A stretch of 17,942 nucleotides of DNA, taken from assembly GCA_964552815.1 (NCBI GenBank), contig CAZKIQ010000067.1, forward strand, positions 1 through 17,942. Reading direction: 5' to 3'. Below are positions 3,839-17,766 of this stretch, in pieces (positions within the stretch are counted from its first letter, which is position 1; each line of letters starts with the position of its first letter). Both the position numbers and the translations under genes were made by a program. This DNA is from an uncultured Alcaligenaceae bacterium (lineage in GTDB: Bacteria > Planctomycetota > Planctomycetia > Gemmatales > Gemmataceae). Under the pieces are notes generated by a model that saw only the letters and a list, made by a program, of their open reading frames with translations, searched no databases and was not told the DNA's origin.

Positions 3839-4643
3839 GCCGACCCCCTCCGCTGCCGACTATGAGTGTTGGTGTCAAGTCTCCTCAATCATAATCCCTG
3901 CGGCGCGGACCGTCCACGCCGCGGGGGGTGACGCGTTGCCGTTCTTCCGAGCATGGTTTTGCCGACGTCGCTCGCTCACCCTGAGTCAGAGCGGCGGCGG
4001 CAAAACCATGCTGGCTTTCCCTCGCCTCGCGGCCATCAGACGCCAGGCATTTCGTCAGGTGAATCGGGTCGGCGGCGTGTCTCGGGTTCAGCCGCACGAC
4101 CCCAAGTTCGACGTGCGGACCGCCCTGTACCTGGCGACCGGCGTCGACCTCACGGCGGTCGAGGGGATCGACGCGGTCCACGCCCTGACGCTGGTCAGCG
4201 AACTCGGGTGCGACATGACGAAGTGGCCGACGGTCGGCCAGTTCGCGAGTTGGTTGGGGCTGTGCCCGCAGTTCAAGAAGACGGGCGGGAAGGTGCAGTC
4301 GAGCCGGACGCGCAAAGGGAAAGGGCGGGCGGCCCAGGCGTTCCGATTGGCGGCGTGGGGGTTGATGCGGAGCAAGAGTTATCTGGGTGCGTACCTGCGT
4401 CGGCAGCGGAGTCGGTTGGGTGCCCCGAAGGCGATCACGGCAACGGCCCACAAGCTGGCGCGGATCGTGTACCACCTGATGCGGTACGGCGAGGCGTATG
4501 TCAAGAAGGACGAGGAAGCGTATGCCGAGCAGGTGCGGGAGCGGTTGGAGAAGCAGTTGCGTCGGCGAGCGAAAGAGTTGGGGTTCGAGGTGGTGAGGGT
4601 GTCGGCGGAGCCGGACCCGAGTGACACCCCATTGTCAGCGTGA
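3738..4643 (+). pseudogene. 5'-truncated IS110-family transposase. Only the C-terminal Transposase_20-type domain is present, with homology starting near 4090. The N-terminal DEDD catalytic domain is absent.
   Basis: The C-terminal 180 aa read LYLATGVDLTAVEGIDAVHALTLVSELGCDMTKWPTVGQFASWLGLCPQFKKTGGKVQSSRTRKGKGRAAQAFRLAAWGLMRSKSYLGAYLRRQRSRLGAPKAITATAHKLARIVYHLM. This matches the conserved IS110/IS116/IS902 C-terminal domain pattern (L..PG.G...A..L.AE.GD..RF.....A.Y.GL.P...SG......G.I.K.G...LR..L..AA...A.AHKLARI.Y.L). The upstream 100 aa have no DEDD-domain features such as a VGIDVSK-like motif. Confidence 0.7.
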
Positions 4644-4849: not shown

Positions 4850-5242
4850 TCATTCCCCGCGGACCAGCAGCCCCTCCGTCCGCCGCCCGTCGGACGTCTC
4901 AAGGACCACGGTGAGGAAGTCGATGCCCGGGCGGGTCTGCTCCTCCCAGTAGACCGTGCCCGCGGCGTCTCGCAGCCGGACGGTGCATGACCCGTGGGGA
5001 CCGGGGTGGTAGTACAGGAACCCCGCCAGCCGCCGGCGGTACGGCCCAGGCAGGTCCGGCGGGTGCTTGACCCGCCAACTGCCCTCGAGGTCCTCGCGGC
5101 AGAGTTCCTCTAGAGTTAGGGTCGGCACCGGCTCGGACTCCGGAGGTCGGGCCTGATCCCGCGGCCACAGCAGGTACGAAATCGCGACCGCCGCAACTGC
5201 CGCGAGCCCCACCAGCCACCACTGCCGACGGAACAATCGCAA
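4850..5242 (-). CDS. Cassette B: small membrane-anchored hypothetical protein of 130 aa, with an N-terminal TM helix and a TTG or GTG start.
   Basis: Translation begins (M)RLFRRQWWLVGLAAVAAVAISYLLW, giving a signal-anchor followed by a soluble domain of about 100 aa with two Cys. The SD-like GGAGGG lies 7-8 nt upstream of the TTG start. GTTCGGC lies about 15 nt upstream of the start, matching the pattern of the other cassettes. Confidence 0.5.
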   Translation of the reverse strand: MRLFRRQWWLVGLAAVAAVAISYLLWPRDQARPPESEPVPTLTLEELCREDLEGSWRVKHPPDLPGPYRRRLAGFLYYHPGPHGSCTVRLRDAAGTVYWEEQTRPGIDFLTVVLETSDGRRTEGLLVRGE

Positions 5243-5257
5243 CCCACGCCCTCCGCC

Positions 5258-5353
5258 GCCGAACGATCGTGCTCACTTGCCGGGGCCGCTGCAAGACTTC
5301 ATACCGCGCGAAACCGTGATGCGGCCCCGGTCAAGTGCAGCACATGGTTAGCG
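5258..5353 (-). repeat. attC-like imperfect palindromic site number 1, of about 96 nt. Read in the gene direction it runs from R'' CGCTAAC to R' GTTCGGC. It sits between cassettes C and B.
   Basis: On the plus strand the arm gccgaacgatcgtgctcacttgccggggccgctgc pairs with gcggccccggtcaagtgcagcacatggttagcgg. Pairing is imperfect, with indels. The element is homologous to the elements at 5831-5928 and 6555-6652. Confidence 0.55.
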
Positions 5354-5376
5354 GTTGGCCCCGCGCGAGGCCGGCA

Positions 5377-5817
5377 TCACAAGCTGGTCCAGATGAGTAG
5401 CGTCTTTTTCTCAAGCTGCGCTGACTCGGCGGTGTCGCCGATGCTGCGCAACAAGTCGAGAACTTCAGATGCGTCCCATCCCTCCAATTCCTCAGTCGCG
5501 CCCCAGCGATCTGCAAGTGATTCGTGCTCGTCTTCTTCCATGCTTGCGATTGAGGCTAGTGCCCCCAGCATTTTTAGTGGAACGATGTCAACCCATGGGC
5601 CTTGATCGCCTTCTGGGATGGTCCGTATCTCGTCGAGCCGTTGTTCGAGTGTGTCTTCCGCCGAGCCAGCCTCAACCAAGGCCCACAGGGTTGCGAGCTT
5701 GATGCGATCCAGCCCACGGTAGAAGAAGCCGTCCCAGGTCTGCGAAGGCTCGTCGGACGCTGCGACTGCGTCAGCTTCCGAGGCATCGGCAACGAGTAAG
5801 TGGTTGAGAACGCCCAT
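5377..5817 (-). CDS. Cassette C: acidic hypothetical protein of 146 aa.
   Basis: ATG start and TGA stop. Translation begins MGVLNHLLVADASEADAVAASDEPSQTWDGFFYRGL.... The protein is strongly acidic, which is typical of immunity-type or antitoxin-type proteins. I recognise no family. Confidence 0.55.
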   Translation of the reverse strand: MGVLNHLLVADASEADAVAASDEPSQTWDGFFYRGLDRIKLATLWALVEAGSAEDTLEQRLDEIRTIPEGDQGPWVDIVPLKMLGALASIASMEEDEHESLADRWGATEELEGWDASEVLDLLRSIGDTAESAQLEKKTLLIWTSL

Positions 5818-5830
5818 GCGAGAACTCTGC

Positions 5831-5928
5831 CGCTAACGCACAAGCTCACCTGCCGGCGGGGCATAGGTGGGCTCCACGTCCCAGAAACCAATGATGCCCC
5901 GCCGGTCAGGTGCAGCGACTGGTTAGCT
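5831..5928 (-). repeat. attC-like imperfect palindromic site number 2, of about 98 nt. Read in the gene direction it runs from R'' AGCTAAC, which overlaps the TAA stop of cassette D, to R' GTTAGCG.
   Basis: On the plus strand the arm cgctaacgcacaagctcacctgccggcggggcat pairs with atgccccgccggtcaggtgcagcgactggttagctg. The central loop is about 27 nt. Confidence 0.55.
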
Positions 5929-6537
5929 GCGGCCGAACACGTCTAACAGGAACTCCCTGCACGAATCGTACAACGGTTGCACCAACGGAGCCAACGCCTC
6001 CCGCCGCCGACAGTTATCCGGACCGAGCGGAATGAGCGATTCGTGATCCATCCACACAACAGGACATTCGCCGTCGGCTCGCCTCTGAACGGCGTCGAAG
6101 CACATCGGCCCCCATCCATCGCCCCATTGTGCCAACGGAACGAAGCCCGCATCGATTAGCGGCCGCCATGCCTTCATTAACTCTCGGAGCGGTTTCAGCG
6201 GCTTCCCTGCCGGCGTGTCCGTCATGAAGATCTGTTGATCATAACGCCGACTCCGCACCTGATCGAACAATTGGAAACGAGCGAGCAAGTACGCCCGAAA
6301 CACCGGCGGGAACTGCACGCCGAACTCGCCTTCGATGACACTCACGTCAGAGTCTTTGAGAGTCGAAGGCAGGACTCGCCATGCAACCCAACCGTCCGCG
6401 TTGACCTCGCCGACTTGCATTTCCGGCGGGACGCCAGCGTCTGCTGGGTCTTCGGCGGCGACGCCCATCCGCCATGCGTCGGTGGCATATGAGTCAAGGA
6501 GCCGGCCGACAAACGCGCTGTCGTCCGCGACGGCCAT
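5923..6537 (-). CDS. Cassette D: SMI1/KNR4 (SUKH-1) family protein, a putative immunity protein. The track ORF extends to 6684, but that extension reads through the attC-like site and overlaps the upstream gene.
   Basis: The block VSVIEGEFGVQFPPVFRAYLL corresponds to the SUKH-1 N-terminal LG..fP.dY..FL block. The block FVPLAQWGDGWGPMCFDAVQRRADGECPVVWMDHESL corresponds to the pFa.d..GN..cfd......p.VvfWDHE block of SMI1/KNR4 proteins. The SD AGGAGG lies 6 nt upstream of the second ATG (MAVADD...). Confidence 0.7.
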   Translation of the reverse strand: MAVADDSAFVGRLLDSYATDAWRMGVAAEDPADAGVPPEMQVGEVNADGWVAWRVLPSTLKDSDVSVIEGEFGVQFPPVFRAYLLARFQLFDQVRSRRYDQQIFMTDTPAGKPLKPLRELMKAWRPLIDAGFVPLAQWGDGWGPMCFDAVQRRADGECPVVWMDHESLIPLGPDNCRRREALAPLVQPLYDSCREFLLDVFGRS

Positions 6538-6554
6538 CGGCATCCTCCTGTAGC

Positions 6555-6652
6555 GGCTAACGCACAAGCTCACCCGCGGCGGCCGCTGATGAGACGTTGA
6601 ACTCTGAAAAACCGTGATGCGGCCGCCGTCGGCGTGCAGCGACTTGTTCGGC
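6555..6652 (-). repeat. attC-like imperfect palindromic site number 3, of about 98 nt. Read in the gene direction it runs from R'' GCCGAAC, 8 nt after the TAA of cassette E, to R' GTTAGCC.
   Basis: On the plus strand the arm ggctaacgcacaagctcacccgcggcggccgctgat pairs with atcacggtt...gcggccgccgtcggcgtgcagcgacttgttcggc. Confidence 0.55.
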
Positions 6653-6659
6653 GAAGACC

Positions 6660-7229
6660 TTAGGATGGGCTGCGTCGCTGCCAACGGAATCCCTTGACAA
6701 ACAGCCTCGATTCAACCGTCCCATCCCATTCGACGTTGAATCCCTCGCGCTCCAATGAGGCACGCAACATTTTTCCGACCTTCACAGCCTTCGCATCGTT
6801 TCCCGAGCGATGCCCAAAACCGATGTAAAGGCCGCTTCCATCTAACGCTCCTTCTTGGTCCTGCTCTGTATAGAAGCAATGGCCAGCGTAGTCGGATTTT
6901 GTGAGACCGGATTCGTGGAAAGCATCCTCGACTTCCTCTATCCCGTCCGATTGGTCGAACCCGGCCCGGTGTAGAGCGATGATTCCTTGGGCTTCAAGCA
7001 TGGTGAATGCCCGATCAAGGCGATCGAAGTCGGTCACCTTCGGCCAGGTCTCTTCCGCCTTCCGCTTGGCCTCGAATTCGCTTCGGATCACTTCAAGCAG
7101 CCATCTCTTGCCAGCGTCGTCGAGTTCGCCGTAATGGTCCCTGATGTAAAGGGCGACGTCTGCCTCGTCGAACTCTCCGCTCCAGAGGAGGGACCGAACG
7201 CAGCTCAGGATGTCCTCGCGAGTCGCCAT
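6660..7229 (-). CDS. Cassette E: hypothetical protein of about 189 aa. ATG at 7229 is the probable start. The GTG at 7241 given in the track overlaps the SD.
   Basis: Translation begins MATREDILSCVRSLLWSGEFDEADVALYIRDHYGELDD.... It continues GIIALHRAGFDQSDGIEEVEDAF...AGHCFYTEQDQE...LYIGFG. The motif pattern resembles, from memory, a family of uncharacterised actinobacterial DUF proteins. The SD GAGGAG lies about 11 nt upstream of the ATG. Confidence 0.6.
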   Translation of the reverse strand: MATREDILSCVRSLLWSGEFDEADVALYIRDHYGELDDAGKRWLLEVIRSEFEAKRKAEETWPKVTDFDRLDRAFTMLEAQGIIALHRAGFDQSDGIEEVEDAFHESGLTKSDYAGHCFYTEQDQEGALDGSGLYIGFGHRSGNDAKAVKVGKMLRASLEREGFNVEWDGTVESRLFVKGFRWQRRSPS

Positions 7230-7246
7230 CGCCCGCACCACTCCTC

Positions 7247-7332
7247 GCCGAACATGGGATTAGATTGCGCCGGCGCAATCTATCACGAACCCGCTCTTAC
7301 GCACCATCTTCAGCCGTAACTCACAGTTCAAG
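7247..7332 (-). repeat. Degenerate fourth attC-like element upstream of cassette E. Its low-coordinate terminal 7-mer is GCCGAAC (GTTCGGC in the gene direction). It contains a perfect 18-nt palindrome, GATTGCGCCGGCGCAATC, at about 7263-7280.
   Basis: The sequence agttcaagctgcggttgtgg at 7325-7344 resembles the R''-proximal ends of sites 1 and 2 (ggttagctgcggccgaac, ggttagcggttggcc). ttgcgccggcgc resembles the arm motif ttgccggggccgc. No minus-strand ORF lies upstream of it. Confidence 0.3.
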
Positions 7333-7577
7333 CTGCGGTTGTGGACGATTTTATGCCACTTACCCGCGCGACCTATCACACTAACGGACCTTGCGCCGAT
7401 TCATACCCGCCCTGAATTTACGTCACCCGTCCAGCGGGCTCTTCACGCCCGCCCGCCCTTGTTCAGCACGTGCGTGTCGATCATCGTGGTACTCACGTCG
7501 TCGTGCCTGAGCAACTCCTGGACCGTGCAAGTGGTGCCGCCGTCGCTCACCGGTCCGTGGGTCGACGGACAGTTTAA

Positions 7578-7895
7578 CCGACGGGAAGACGTTTTGCCAC
7601 CGAAGTCCGCGGCGACATGGTCGCCCCTTCCACTTCGAAACAGGAGATTTTCTTCCGCGGCACCAAGTTTGACATCAAAACGCAGGACGTCAAGAACCTC
7701 AAGGAAGGGGAGTGGAACAGCTTCGAGATCGTCGTGGCCGGCGACCAGGCGGAGTTCTTCGCCAACGGCGAGTCCCTGAAGAAGTTGAAGGTGAAGCCGG
7801 GGAAATCACCGCTGGGAATCCGTGCCGAGTTCGGTCCCATCGAAATCCTCCGAATTCGCGTCAAGGAATCGCCCGCCGTCCCACCAGGCCAGTGA
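7578..7895 (+). pseudogene. C-terminal fragment of about 95-105 aa of a DUF1080 / 3-keto-disaccharide hydrolase (PF06439-like) domain protein. The N-terminal two thirds are absent. An in-frame stop lies at about 7575.
   Basis: The sequence ...QEIFFRGTKFDIKTQDVKNLKEGEWNSFEIVVAGDQAEFFANGESLKKLKVKPGKSPLGIRAEFGPIEILRIRVKE matches the DUF1080 C-terminal pattern (WN...I...G.....NG..V....G.I.LQ.H.....FRNI.IK.L). The upstream frames contain none of the N-terminal part of the domain. Confidence 0.45.
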
Positions 7896-9264: not shown

Positions 9265-10218
9265 ATGCGGAAAATCGCAGCATCGGCCTGGGCAGCCGCC
9301 ATCGGCCTGACGGTCTCGTCGACCGCTTTCGCGCAAACCACGGGAACCACCGGAACCACCAGCGGAATCAGCTCGGGCGGGGGCGGCGGGCTCAGCGGCA
9401 TCGGGGGGAGCGGCCAACTCGGCGCCGGCGGGCAGACCATCTCCGGATCCACCGCCAACTTCTCGCAAATCACGGGCACCAACACCGGACAGGGAACCCC
9501 CAACAACTCCAGCTCTCTCAACCAGTCGAACATCCTCAGCCCCTACTACGCCAACCCCTACTACCAGGGACGGGCCGGAGCACAATCCACCGACACGCCT
9601 GGCGGCTTTGGCACCGCGCTCTACGGAAACACCAGCGGCACCGGCGGGCTCGGAGGCACCGGAACCTTCGGACGAACCTCCGGAGGGACCACCGGAGCGA
9701 CCGGCCTCGGGACCGGCGGAGCTTCCCGTACCAGCACCGGAACCACCGGCGGCCTGGGCGGGGCCACCACCAACCGCACCGGACTTGGCGGAACCACCGG
9801 GTTCGGCGGTGCGACTGGAACCGGGGGCCTGGGCGGAACCGGGGGATTGGGCGGAGCAGGAGGATTCGGAAACACCGGCCTCGGCGGAACCTCCGGGCTC
9901 GGCGGGACCAACACCACCGGCCAAGGCGTCGGCGGGATCGTCATCCCGCCCGCCCGGGCCATCGCCTACACCTCCACCCTCCGATTCCGCGGCCCAACCC
10001 CCACCCCGGTCCAGCACCACGCGAATCTGCGGGCCGTCCTCGACCGCTCCACCATGCTTTCCAACCCCCGCGGCGTTGAGGTCGCCACCGACGGTAATTT
10101 CGTGGTCCTCCGCGGAGCCGTCCGCGACGAGGACGAGGCCCGGCTCGTCGAGAACATGATCCGCCTCTCCCCCGGCGTTCGCGAAGTCCGCAACGAGTTG
10201 AAATTCCCGCAACCGTAA
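9265..10218 (+). CDS. Secreted Gly/Thr-rich low-complexity protein with a C-terminal BON domain.
   Basis: ATG at 9265 gives MRKIAASAWAAAIGLTVSSTAFA, a signal peptide, with the SD GGAGTGGG upstream. The GTG at 9256 in the track is less likely. About 200 aa follow of TGG(L/F)GG-type repeats. The C-terminus VEVATDGNFVVLRGAVRDEDEARLVENMIRLSPGVREVRNEL fits the BON (OsmY-like) fold pattern. Confidence 0.8.
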   Translation: MRKIAASAWAAAIGLTVSSTAFAQTTGTTGTTSGISSGGGGGLSGIGGSGQLGAGGQTISGSTANFSQITGTNTGQGTPNNSSSLNQSNILSPYYANPYYQGRAGAQSTDTPGGFGTALYGNTSGTGGLGGTGTFGRTSGGTTGATGLGTGGASRTSTGTTGGLGGATTNRTGLGGTTGFGGATGTGGLGGTGGLGGAGGFGNTGLGGTSGLGGTNTTGQGVGGIVIPPARAIAYTSTLRFRGPTPTPVQHHANLRAVLDRSTMLSNPRGVEVATDGNFVVLRGAVRDEDEARLVENMIRLSPGVREVRNELKFPQP

Positions 10219-15972: not shown

Positions 15973-17766
15973 ATGCCCTCTGCTTCTGGATCTGGCTTTC
16001 CCGTCCCGCTCTTTGCCCAAACCCGGACCAAGGCGGCGACGCCGGAAGCCGGTCCTGCGAAGGAATCGGAATCGAGCTGGATCCCCTGGCCGCTCGTTGC
16101 CGCGGTGATGTTCGCCGCCGTCCTCTTCTCCTTCGTCCTGCTGCTGATCCAGCGGTACAAACGGTGCCCGTCCAACCGGGTGCTCGTCATTTACGGGAAA
16201 ACCGGCGGCGGTAACGCGGCCAAGTGTGTCCACGGCGGCGCCGCATTCGTCCTCCCCCTCGTCCAGGACTACGAGTACCTCAGCCTCGAACCGATCCAGA
16301 TCGAGATTCCCCTCAAGGGGGCACTCTCGATGGAGAACATCCGCGTCAACGTGCCGAGCGTCTTCACCGTCGCCGTCGGCACGGACATGATCACGATGCA
16401 GAACGCGGCCATCCGTCTGCTCGGGCTCACCACCCAGGAAGTGAAGCAGCAGGCCGGCGACATCATTTTCGGCCAGCTTCGCCAGGTCATCGCCTCGATG
16501 AAGATCGAGGACATCAACCGCGACCGGGACAAGTTCCTGGAAAACATCCAGAAGTCGCTCGAACCGGAGTTGCAGAAGATCGGCCTCGTTCTGATCAACG
16601 TCAACATCACAGACATCACCGACGAGTCCGGGTACATCGAGGCGATCGGCCGGAAGGCGGCCTCCACCGCGATCCAGCAGGCGAAGGTCGACGTCGCCGA
16701 GCAGGAGAAACGCGGGCAGATCGGGGTCGCGGAGGCCGAGCGCGAACGGGCCGTCTCCGTCGCAAACGCCACCAAACTGCGGGAAATCGGCACCCGCGAA
16801 GCCACCCGCGAACAGGCCATCCGCGTCGCCCAGCTCGAAAAAGAACGCTCCGTCGGCGAGCAATCCGCACTGCTCGAACAGGAAGCGCTCATCAAGGAAA
16901 CCCAGCGTCAGCAGGCGATCCGCATCGCCGAGCTCGACCGGGACCAGAAAGTCGGGGAGCAACAGGCCGCTTTCGAGCGGGAAGCCCGGATCGCCGAGGC
17001 GGAGCGGGACAAACGGGTCCGACTCGCCGACGCCAACGCAAGTGCAGTGACCGGGGAAGCCGTCGCTCAGGCGACCGTCGCCGACGCCCAGGCCACCCTC
17101 GCCGTCCGCAAAGCGGAGGCGTACCAGGTTTCCGAGACGAAGAAACGCGAGGCGGAAGCCGCCGTGCTGGAGGCCCAGAACAAGGCGATGGCCAAGGCCG
17201 CCCTCGCCGAGGCGGACAAGGTCGAGGCCGAGAAACGGGCGATCCTGGAAGCACCCGCAAAGGCCGAGAAAGCCCGCACCATTGTCGAAGCCGAAGCCGC
17301 CGCCGAGAAAGCCAAGCTCGCCGCCCTGGCCGAGGCCGCAGCCATCTACGCCAAGCTCGAAGCCGAGGCCCGCGGCCAGTACGAGATCCTCGCCAAGAAG
17401 GGGGAGGGTCTCCGCAGCGTCATCGAGGCCTGCGGTTCCCCCCAAGCCGCCTTCCAGCTCCTGATGCTCGAACACCTCGATTCCCTCGCCGAGGCGTCCG
17501 CGAAGGCGATCTCGAACATCAAGTTCGACAAGGTCGTCGTCTGGGACACCGGCGGGAAAGGGGACGGCTCGGGGTCCAACACCGCCGAGTTCCTGCAGAA
17601 CATGGCCCGCGTCATGCCCCCGATGCTGCAGGTCATGAAGGATGTCGGCGGGGTGGAAGTGCCCGATTACTTCGCGAAACTGACCAACTCCGTCCCGGAC
17701 GTGACACCGCCGGCCCACACGAAGGAAACCAACGGAACCGCCCCGTCGCGAACGGGTGGGAGCTGA
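15973..17766 (+). CDS. Flotillin (SPFH/band-7 domain, FloT/YuaG-like) with a long Ala/Glu-rich coiled-coil region.
   Basis: An N-terminal TM helix is followed by an SPFH domain (RVLVIYGKTGGG...VHGGAAFVLPLVQDYEYLSLEPIQIEIPLKGALSMENIRVNVPSVFTVAV...). Extensive EA-repeat heptads follow (AEAERERAVSVANA...AEKAKLAALAEAAAIYAKLEAEARGQ). The SD GGAG sits at -10. Confidence 0.95.
   Translation: MPSASGSGFPVPLFAQTRTKAATPEAGPAKESESSWIPWPLVAAVMFAAVLFSFVLLLIQRYKRCPSNRVLVIYGKTGGGNAAKCVHGGAAFVLPLVQDYEYLSLEPIQIEIPLKGALSMENIRVNVPSVFTVAVGTDMITMQNAAIRLLGLTTQEVKQQAGDIIFGQLRQVIASMKIEDINRDRDKFLENIQKSLEPELQKIGLVLINVNITDITDESGYIEAIGRKAASTAIQQAKVDVAEQEKRGQIGVAEAERERAVSVANATKLREIGTREATREQAIRVAQLEKERSVGEQSALLEQEALIKETQRQQAIRIAELDRDQKVGEQQAAFEREARIAEAERDKRVRLADANASAVTGEAVAQATVADAQATLAVRKAEAYQVSETKKREAEAAVLEAQNKAMAKAALAEADKVEAEKRAILEAPAKAEKARTIVEAEAAAEKAKLAALAEAAAIYAKLEAEARGQYEILAKKGEGLRSVIEACGSPQAAFQLLMLEHLDSLAEASAKAISNIKFDKVVVWDTGGKGDGSGSNTAEFLQNMARVMPPMLQVMKDVGGVEVPDYFAKLTNSVPDVTPPAHTKETNGTAPSRTGGS

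Follow-up and report, generated by a model that had tools for sequence, protein, structure and literature searches.

A very probable short integron cassette array beside a decayed integrase gene in a Gemmataceae contig, with cassette-sized polymorphism at G/TT

Three similar elements, each at the end of an open reading frame (ORF), lie close together in contig CAZKIQ010000067.1 (assembly GCA_964552815.1; uncultured Alcaligenaceae bacterium, placed in the Gemmataceae by GTDB). The question raised by this locus is whether they are simple palindromic repeats or the recombination sites (attC) of integron cassettes. An earlier, sequence-only reading took them for the latter. According to that reading, the inverse core (R'') of each element is complementary to G plus the first six bases of its own cassette and not to the R' core physically next to it, a "circular-cassette signature" that was ascribed to site-specific exchange between G and TT (written G/TT below). 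We analysed the whole 17,942-nt stretch, here termed the window, and compared it with loci and contigs labelled L002, L005, L006, L007, L009, L012 and L086-L089. Coordinates refer to the plus strand of the window; the top strand of the array is the minus strand and the bottom strand of attC is the plus strand. Overall, the locus is very probably a short chromosomal integron cassette array on the minus strand, comprising a remnant of the integrase gene intI, a putative attI region, the three cassettes E, D and C, what is probably a fourth cassette lacking an attC, and a truncated IS110 element. The cassettes, their junctions (J0-J3) and their inverse cores are as follows.

6561-7252, minus strand: cassette E, 692 nt; ORF 7229-6660 (189 aa, DUF6891); attC 6652-6555, with three unpaired bases
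5837-6560, minus strand: cassette D, 724 nt; ORF 6537-5923 (204 aa); attC 5928-5831
5264-5836, minus strand: cassette C, 573 nt; ORF 5817-5377 (146 aa); attC 5353-5258
7247-7253, minus strand: J0, junction of attI and cassette E, GTTCGGC (G/TTCGGC); identity with L002 starts at TT
6555-6561, minus strand: J1, GTTAGCC
5831-5837, minus strand: J2, GTTAGCG
5258-5264, minus strand: J3, GTTCGGC
6646-6652, minus strand: R'' of cassette E, GCCGAAC
5922-5928, minus strand: R'' of cassette D, AGCTAAC
5347-5353, minus strand: R'' of cassette C, CGCTAAC

Re-extraction of the terminal 7-mers reproduced those given in the sequence-only reading, together with its coordinates for E and C and both of its sets of scores. 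Thus, R'' matched G plus the first six bases of its own cassette at 7/7 positions in E, 6/7 in D and 7/7 in C (20/21 in all), as against 5/7, 6/7 and 4/7 (15/21) for the physically adjacent R' core. Complementarity past the 7-mer across the cassette boundaries, for which that reading had proposed a test, amounted to nothing meaningful: one or two more bases, similar to the site-wise comparison. The three cassettes of the window alone do not reach significance, but the same attC family in related arrays makes the rule overwhelming. Our sample of 21 cassettes, from planctomycete arrays of this attC family, was built on L009, to which L006, L007, L012, L087 and L089 and cassette X, described below, were added. 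Cassette-wise complementarity over this sample was 144/147. Eighteen cassettes were open to both comparisons and scored 123/126 cassette-wise versus 94/126 site-wise; at the four variable positions, the corresponding values were 69/72 and 40/72. Fourteen of the 18 paired better cassette-wise, four were tied and none paired better site-wise. None of 200,000 permutations reached the observed cassette-wise score, the highest being 130. The 7/7 matches are therefore not due to chance over the family, an outcome that the sequence-only reading had left to such a test. In the L009 array, each R'' is the reverse complement of the R' of the preceding site, attI junction included, and this array by itself scored 69/70, which was likewise not attained in 200,000 permutations.

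The crossover point of cassette recombination, between G and TT, has been known since the 1990s. Because the crossover follows the G, the last six bases of each physical R' belong to the next cassette; R'' consequently pairs with the first six bases of its own cassette, as in the excised circle. The pairing rule thus follows from the known crossover point and adds no new principle. Accordingly, the circular-cassette pattern proved real and exact, but it is a textbook consequence of G/TT crossover and not a new signature. As modelled, each cassette would consist of a promoterless ORF and an attC whose bottom strand is predicted to fold into an imperfect hairpin. An integron integrase would cut this folded strand between the A and the C that are complementary to G/TT.

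A match in L007 at 10693 (E 3.3) was considered as an attC but is spurious, the real attI junction of that array being G/TTAGGC. In L009, the attC sites at 6090-6190 and 10040-10140 appear identical over their displayed ends (35 nt inward from R'' and the 22 nt leading up to R'), and GTTCGTCgaacag stands in front of each. One cassette therefore seems to be present twice in that array, although its downstream neighbours differ (GTTAGCC and GTTATGC).

The same cassettes were found in a different arrangement in another sample, as the sequence-only reading had proposed looking for: all three cassettes are also present in SRR14143323, where cassette X separates E from D. Two contigs of that sample, L002 and L086, overlap by 30 nt and jointly read upstream-E-X-D-C-other. 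Cassette E was 100% identical between the window and L002 from exactly the first TT to the terminal G, with unrelated flanks, and D plus C was 99.85% identical between the window and L086, with one mismatch and one indel. Cassette X has 512 nt (TT...G) with its own ORF and attC, and its start, G plus TTCGGC, pairs 7/7 with its own R'', GCCGAAC. When X was removed in silico at G/TT, the E-D junction of the window was obtained with 0 mismatches over 1,400 nt. Differences in the flanks limit the crossover to the four bases C-G-T-T. In L086, D has a different upstream cassette and C is followed by different DNA after G/TTCG, and the E...C block common to the two arrays has each of its outer edges at the core. 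The window form itself is backed by a contig present in six samples. This presence/absence polymorphism of a whole cassette at G/TT is direct evidence of mobility. The most economical route to the window form would be an attC x attC recombination event that excised X.

The three sites of the window share one top-strand architecture. From the R'' end, it consists of R'' (7 nt), 5 nt, GCT[G]CAC, 3 bp, [A], a GC-rich stem and a loop of ~30 nt; the second half comprises the other arm of the stem, 3 bp, GTGAGC, 6 nt and R' (7 nt). The bracketed bases have no partner, and the attC of cassette E has one additional unpaired G. The sites are 96-98 nt long, and spacer arms of 5 and 6 nt occur in 17/17 aligned sites of the family. 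On the bottom strand, the unpaired bases occupy positions 16 and 23 in D and C and positions 16, 20 and 24 in E. They sit on the R''/L'' arm, opposite the AAC triplet, and 6 bp separate the first from the last. This geometry, present in 17/17 sites, is canonical and matches that described by Nivina et al. (PMC5027507). The second unpaired base is the canonical T in 16/17 family sites. The AAC and GTT triplets are invariant in the three window sites and occur in 16/17 and 17/17 aligned family sites, respectively. The three sites lie within 1.4 kb, and a covariance model derived from them found exactly those three in the window; with covariance model R1, the attC of cassette E scored 98 bits.

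The stem of these sites covaries. In an alignment of 17 sites that was fitted to the model's own structure, 98.6% of the inner helix was paired and 10 of its 13 pairs showed compensatory changes; none of 500 shuffles had as high a covariation score. The helix formed by the adjacent R'' and R' was just 81% paired. Its failures lay at the outer variable positions, whose bases belong to the next cassette. An inverted match between 676-713 and 5258-5295, the R'-proximal half of the attC of cassette C (38 nt, 74% complementary, including GTTCGGC), was considered as a distant attC half-site or inversion partner. We judged it to be due to chance: 676-713 overlaps the coding start of a chorismate synthase gene and has no match to the attC model.

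Upstream of the array, on the same strand, lie the remains of an integrase gene and a region with the features of an attachment site.

7425-7605, minus strand: intI remnant, a decayed integron-integrase gene whose two pieces lie in different frames and correspond to about IntI residues 205-238 and 266-310
7254-7424, minus strand: putative attI region, reaching from the intI stop to the first crossover, with two direct GATAGRTYGCGC boxes at 7377-7366 and 7284-7273

The intI remnant lacks residues 1-204, has an internal deletion over box II (HxxR) and carries a frameshift before ...GVKSPLDG*. In six-frame translation, Asp stands in place of the catalytic Tyr (MIDTHV) and LLRH in place of LLGH; the Asp codon, GAC, is at 7476-7474 on the minus strand in ...ATGATCGACACGCAC.... 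The remnant nevertheless matched positions 274-313 of TIGR02249 with an E-value of 1e-10, versus ~1e-3 for XerC/D, and residues 281-317 of VchIntIA (2A3V). The other piece matched TIGR02249 positions 212-239, an IntI-specific region, and no other family. The extent of the remnant was supported by tblastn with the intact IntI of L009 and L007, which themselves score 443 and 461 bits, respectively, against TIGR02249 (cut-off 265). In L007, L009 and L012, the integrase gene shares a strand with attC sites of this family and lies upstream of them. The nearest relatives are Planctomycetota metagenome-assembled genomes (MAGs), assigned to Fimbriiglobus, Planctomycetia and Pirellulaceae, and the host is accordingly probably a planctomycete, perhaps Gemmataceae-like.

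The second GATAGRTYGCGC box forms a perfect 20-nt palindrome, AGATTGCGCCGGCGCAATCT (7281-7262), 8 nt before G/TT. This region is kept, in an unchanged position with respect to intI and G/TT, in L005, L006, L087, L089 and L007, which makes six loci with the window. Across these loci, the presumed attI has one to three direct GATAGRTYGCGC boxes, the final one being palindromic and 5-8 nt before G/TT; the features lie at 6370-6450 in L087, ~663-700 in L089 and ~10390-10440 in L007. The arms of the palindrome change together between loci (AGATTGCGCC with GGCGCAATCT, AGGTCGCGCC with GGCGCGACCT and TTATTTTGCGCC with GGCGCAAGATAA). The conserved region between the remnant and J0 is thus probably attI, and the co-varying palindrome suggests a conserved dimeric protein-binding site or hairpin. 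Beyond the remnant and attI, the flanks of the window, L005 and L006 showed no homology to one another, and orthology of these three loci could therefore not be shown. At 7617-7895 on the plus strand, we also noted a short fragment that resembles the central part of a 3-keto-disaccharide hydrolase (DUF1080) domain (E 6e-5, under the Pfam cut-off). As it adjoins the 5' truncation point of intI, it suggests a deletion or rearrangement boundary at ~7605-7620.

Several observations weigh against reading the locus as an integron cassette array with mobile cassettes. Within the window alone, the pairing is weak: there are 24 ways of giving each of the three R'' cores one of the four junctions, 2 of which reach 20/21, and AAC/GTT, three of the seven positions, never vary. 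The 7-mers stray from the extended core consensus, RYYYAAC/GTTRRRY, at one or two positions each, only AAC/GTT being invariant, and a strict regular expression consequently missed every site. The unpaired base at position 16, usually G (PMC5027507), is a bottom-strand C in 17/17 family sites (plus-strand C at 5338, 5913 and 6637 in the window), a count open to some selection bias since the sites were collected with a model trained on three sites having this base. At the upstream edge of E, L002 reads GTTT and not GTT, which fixes that boundary only to within one base. A circular form of E would join the 3' end of its attC (...G) to its own TT start, GGTGAGCTTGTGCG/TTCGGCGAGGAGTGG. This junction, the other form in which the sequence-only reading had proposed to look for the cassettes, was not present in Joint Genome Institute (JGI) metagenome contigs, and metagenome scans found neither a tandem E junction nor the loop of the attC of E. 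No sigma-70-type promoter was found upstream of the array in 5200-7650 by a scan that leaves out planctomycete promoter types. Finally, the 17.9-kb window contains no functional integrase and no other intI, so current mobility at the locus is not proven.

Some of these points would suit a different view of the elements, as intergenic palindromes of the repetitive extragenic palindromic (REP) or bacterial interspersed mosaic element (BIME) kind, or as terminator hairpins, with 7-mer matches that arose by chance. The elements are indeed intergenic, GC-rich hairpins right after stop codons, and the pairing within the window does not exceed what 2/24 assignments attain. By contrast, the permutation result over 21 cassettes contradicts chance matching. 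The inner stem pairs well within the site and only the outer R box fails, whereas the sequence-only reading had argued that a simple palindromic repeat should score best within an element; with the lower site-wise score over 18 cassettes, this rules against such a repeat. Moreover, a whole-cassette indel has exact G/TT edges, and an integrase remnant and the putative attI lie upstream. The attC sites have no T-run and no terminator call, and an Rfam scan of the elements returned no family match, only one sub-threshold chance match. We therefore regard repeats or terminators as scarcely credible. That these are true cassettes, exchanged site-specifically between G and TT as the sequence-only reading held, is supported by the polymorphism edged by G/TT, the canonical attC sites, the covariation of their stems, and the intI remnant with the putative attI.

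Accepting the elements as attC sites, one might still attribute the presence or absence of X to RecA-dependent or slipped-strand recombination between similar attC 3' ends. Short homology is available, the 3' ends of the E and X sites sharing ...TGAGCTTGT.CGTT. However, the interval of exchange is just the four bases CGTT, coincident with the integrase crossover, and at either end of the E...C block common to both arrays the edge is likewise at G/TT. The pairing in 21 cassettes, moreover, requires original assembly by exchange at exactly that point, and we consider recombination by homology very unlikely. At the opposite extreme, the locus could be a complete and currently active integron that moves cassettes with its own integrase: an integrase-like coding sequence and an attI-like region lie directly upstream, and near-identical cassettes in another array suggest recent movement. 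The lesions of the remnant (loss of residues 1-204, the box II deletion, the frameshift and the change of the catalytic Tyr to Asp) and the lack of another intI in the window leave this proposal with almost no plausibility. Integrase-mediated assembly of an array whose own integrase gene is dead remains our reading, which makes the locus a cassette array with an intI pseudogene, that is, a CALIN (a group of clustered attC sites that has no integron integrase). The near identity of the shared cassettes, set against the heavy decay of the local intI, points to exchange in trans or in another genome. An integrase encoded elsewhere, or one active before the local decay, may have catalysed the rearrangements.

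The Asp at the catalytic Tyr is not peculiar to the window. It occurs in the window and in at least five related loci, L005 (556-558), L006, L087, L088 and L089, with a different secondary lesion in each. L087 is full length save one TAG codon; in L005, the upstream part of the gene is far more decayed than the C-terminus. Among the closest database relatives of the remnant, 27 of the best 120 word-index matches also have Asp, an abundance that is partly ascertainment because the queries themselves carried Asp. IntI homologues number about 50,000 at E<1e-3, and an exhaustive search found no full-length Asp-type representative; the word-index protein search, which returned only entries of at most 97 aa, is uninformative on full-length forms. 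Over the C-terminal 81 codons, the ratio of nonsynonymous to synonymous divergence (dN/dS) among Asp-type loci was 0.14-0.36 at dS 0.6-1.7, and that of pairs with a Tyr-type gene was 0.10-0.19. A single Asp-type clade was considered and rejected: the nearest neighbour is Tyr-type for 16/25, mean identities are equal and the planctomycete Asp loci are not exclusively grouped. In the simplest reading, the Tyr-to-Asp change was a late one that arose on more than one occasion, and the genes affected were functional through most of their divergence. A more speculative proposal, which we consider improbable, is that a non-catalytic IntI or a C-terminal fragment has been repeatedly favoured or retained, for example because it binds attC, attI or IntI subunits and so might protect the stability of the array from integrases that act in trans, with occasional exchange of cassettes continuing.

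Each cassette of the window has a single top-strand ORF, preceded in E and D by a Shine-Dalgarno sequence, and the GC content of E, D and C (58-62%) is under the window average of 64.6%. The product of cassette E matched Pfam PF21831 (DUF6891) with an E-value of 8e-51. That of cassette D has weak similarity to SUKH-1/SMI1, under the Pfam cut-off, and its stop codon, TAA, sits within R'' (AGCTAAC). The product of cassette C had no family match. Such cargo, comprising a DUF6891 protein, a weakly SUKH-like immunity-type protein and proteins of no family, is typical of uncharacterized environmental cassettes. Separately, the copy of cassette C in L086 has a 1-nt insertion, ttctacCcgtggg, at ~915 (window ~5720), which shifts the frame and yields a called product of 162 aa versus 146 aa. 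In at least one lineage, then, this cargo gene is not strongly constrained.

How does the locus compare with known systems? Cury et al. (2016, PMC4889954) define CALIN as at least two attC sites within 4 kb with no functional intI nearby; an intI pseudogene was near 15 of their 279 CALIN, and an insertion sequence (IS) near 38%. The window resembles these in its clustered, homogeneous attC sites, its one promoterless ORF per cassette, its intI pseudogene and its adjoining IS. It differs from them in that a putative attI is still recognizable by homology and the remnant is co-oriented with the cassettes. The co-oriented layout of intI and cassettes has been described for Treponema, initially for T. 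denticola (PMC3607928). As in those integrons, intI is co-oriented here, and the intact L007, L009 and L012 share this layout together with the attC family. Unlike them, the present loci are in planctomycete MAGs, not spirochaetes, and the intI of the window is a pseudogene.

At the level of the sites, the likeness is to attC-aadA7 and the Vibrio cholerae repeats (VCR), which share the R''-L''...L'-R' order, the AAC/GTT triplets, the 5- and 6-nt spacers, the unpaired bases and G/TT (PMC5027507, PMC3518468); the G/TT crossover is established (PMC3518468). The lengths of the window sites are within the range of 57-141 bp reported for attC sites. The differences are the bottom-strand C at position 16 throughout the family and the departures of the cores from the extended consensus. 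The chromosomal attC sites of Planctomycetes have been treated as a recognizable taxon-specific structural family (Ghaly et al. 2021, PMC8352920). The closest arrays found are in Planctomycetia and Pirellulaceae MAGs, and the present sites may belong to that family.

The locus is thus of interest on several counts. It is an unusually clear natural example of a cassette gained or lost at G/TT, in an environmental and probably planctomycete lineage. With its relatives, it offers a co-oriented integron platform outside the proteobacterial models, with a definable putative attI marked by direct boxes and a co-varying palindrome, and an attC family whose first unpaired bottom-strand base is uniformly C, where experimental work has dealt with G. 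The presence of near-identical cassettes in two arrays, one of them beside a long-dead integrase, bears on how CALIN-type arrays stay dynamic. The case is also one in which an integron cassette array was correctly recognized from raw sequence alone.

Past J3, the array appears to continue into a further cassette and then to be interrupted.

4850-5263, minus strand: probably where a fourth cassette starts; its leader, TTCGGCGGCGGAGGG, includes a Shine-Dalgarno sequence and precedes a 130-aa ORF (5242-4850; 70.5% GC) with an N-terminal hydrophobic segment
4030-4643, plus strand: IS110-family transposase, C-terminal part only (Pfam Transposase_20, E 4e-12); DEDD N-terminal domain missing

The 15-nt leader TTCGGCGGCGGAGGG also opens cassette X and the first cassette of L089, and its first 12 nt, TTCGGCGGCGGA, come after the last junction of L007. 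Since the same leader opens unrelated cassettes elsewhere, the 130-aa ORF is probably the start of a fourth cassette. Both this ORF and cassette X have a GC content of ~70.6% in addition to the common leader, and their proteins are unrelated. An attC following the 130-aa ORF, or one split by the IS110 remnant, was sought and rejected, none being found at E<10 with filters off, and no other genomic context of this ORF is on record. A 24-bp inverted repeat, 92% complementary, lies by the IS110 remnant at 3950-3973 and 3989-4012. The array is disrupted at its distal end, which the truncated IS110 marks. Assemblies of this locus from short reads break near the IS110 remnant, L003 and L004 ending near window ~3700, and L088, an Asp-type locus, has a complete IS110 element nearby.

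Elsewhere in the window, GC-rich direct repeats with units of ~30-40 nt were noted at 9350-9910 (CGGCGGAACC-type) and, as 39-nt units, at 17285-17394. Both probably lie within repetitive coding regions and are unrelated to the integron.

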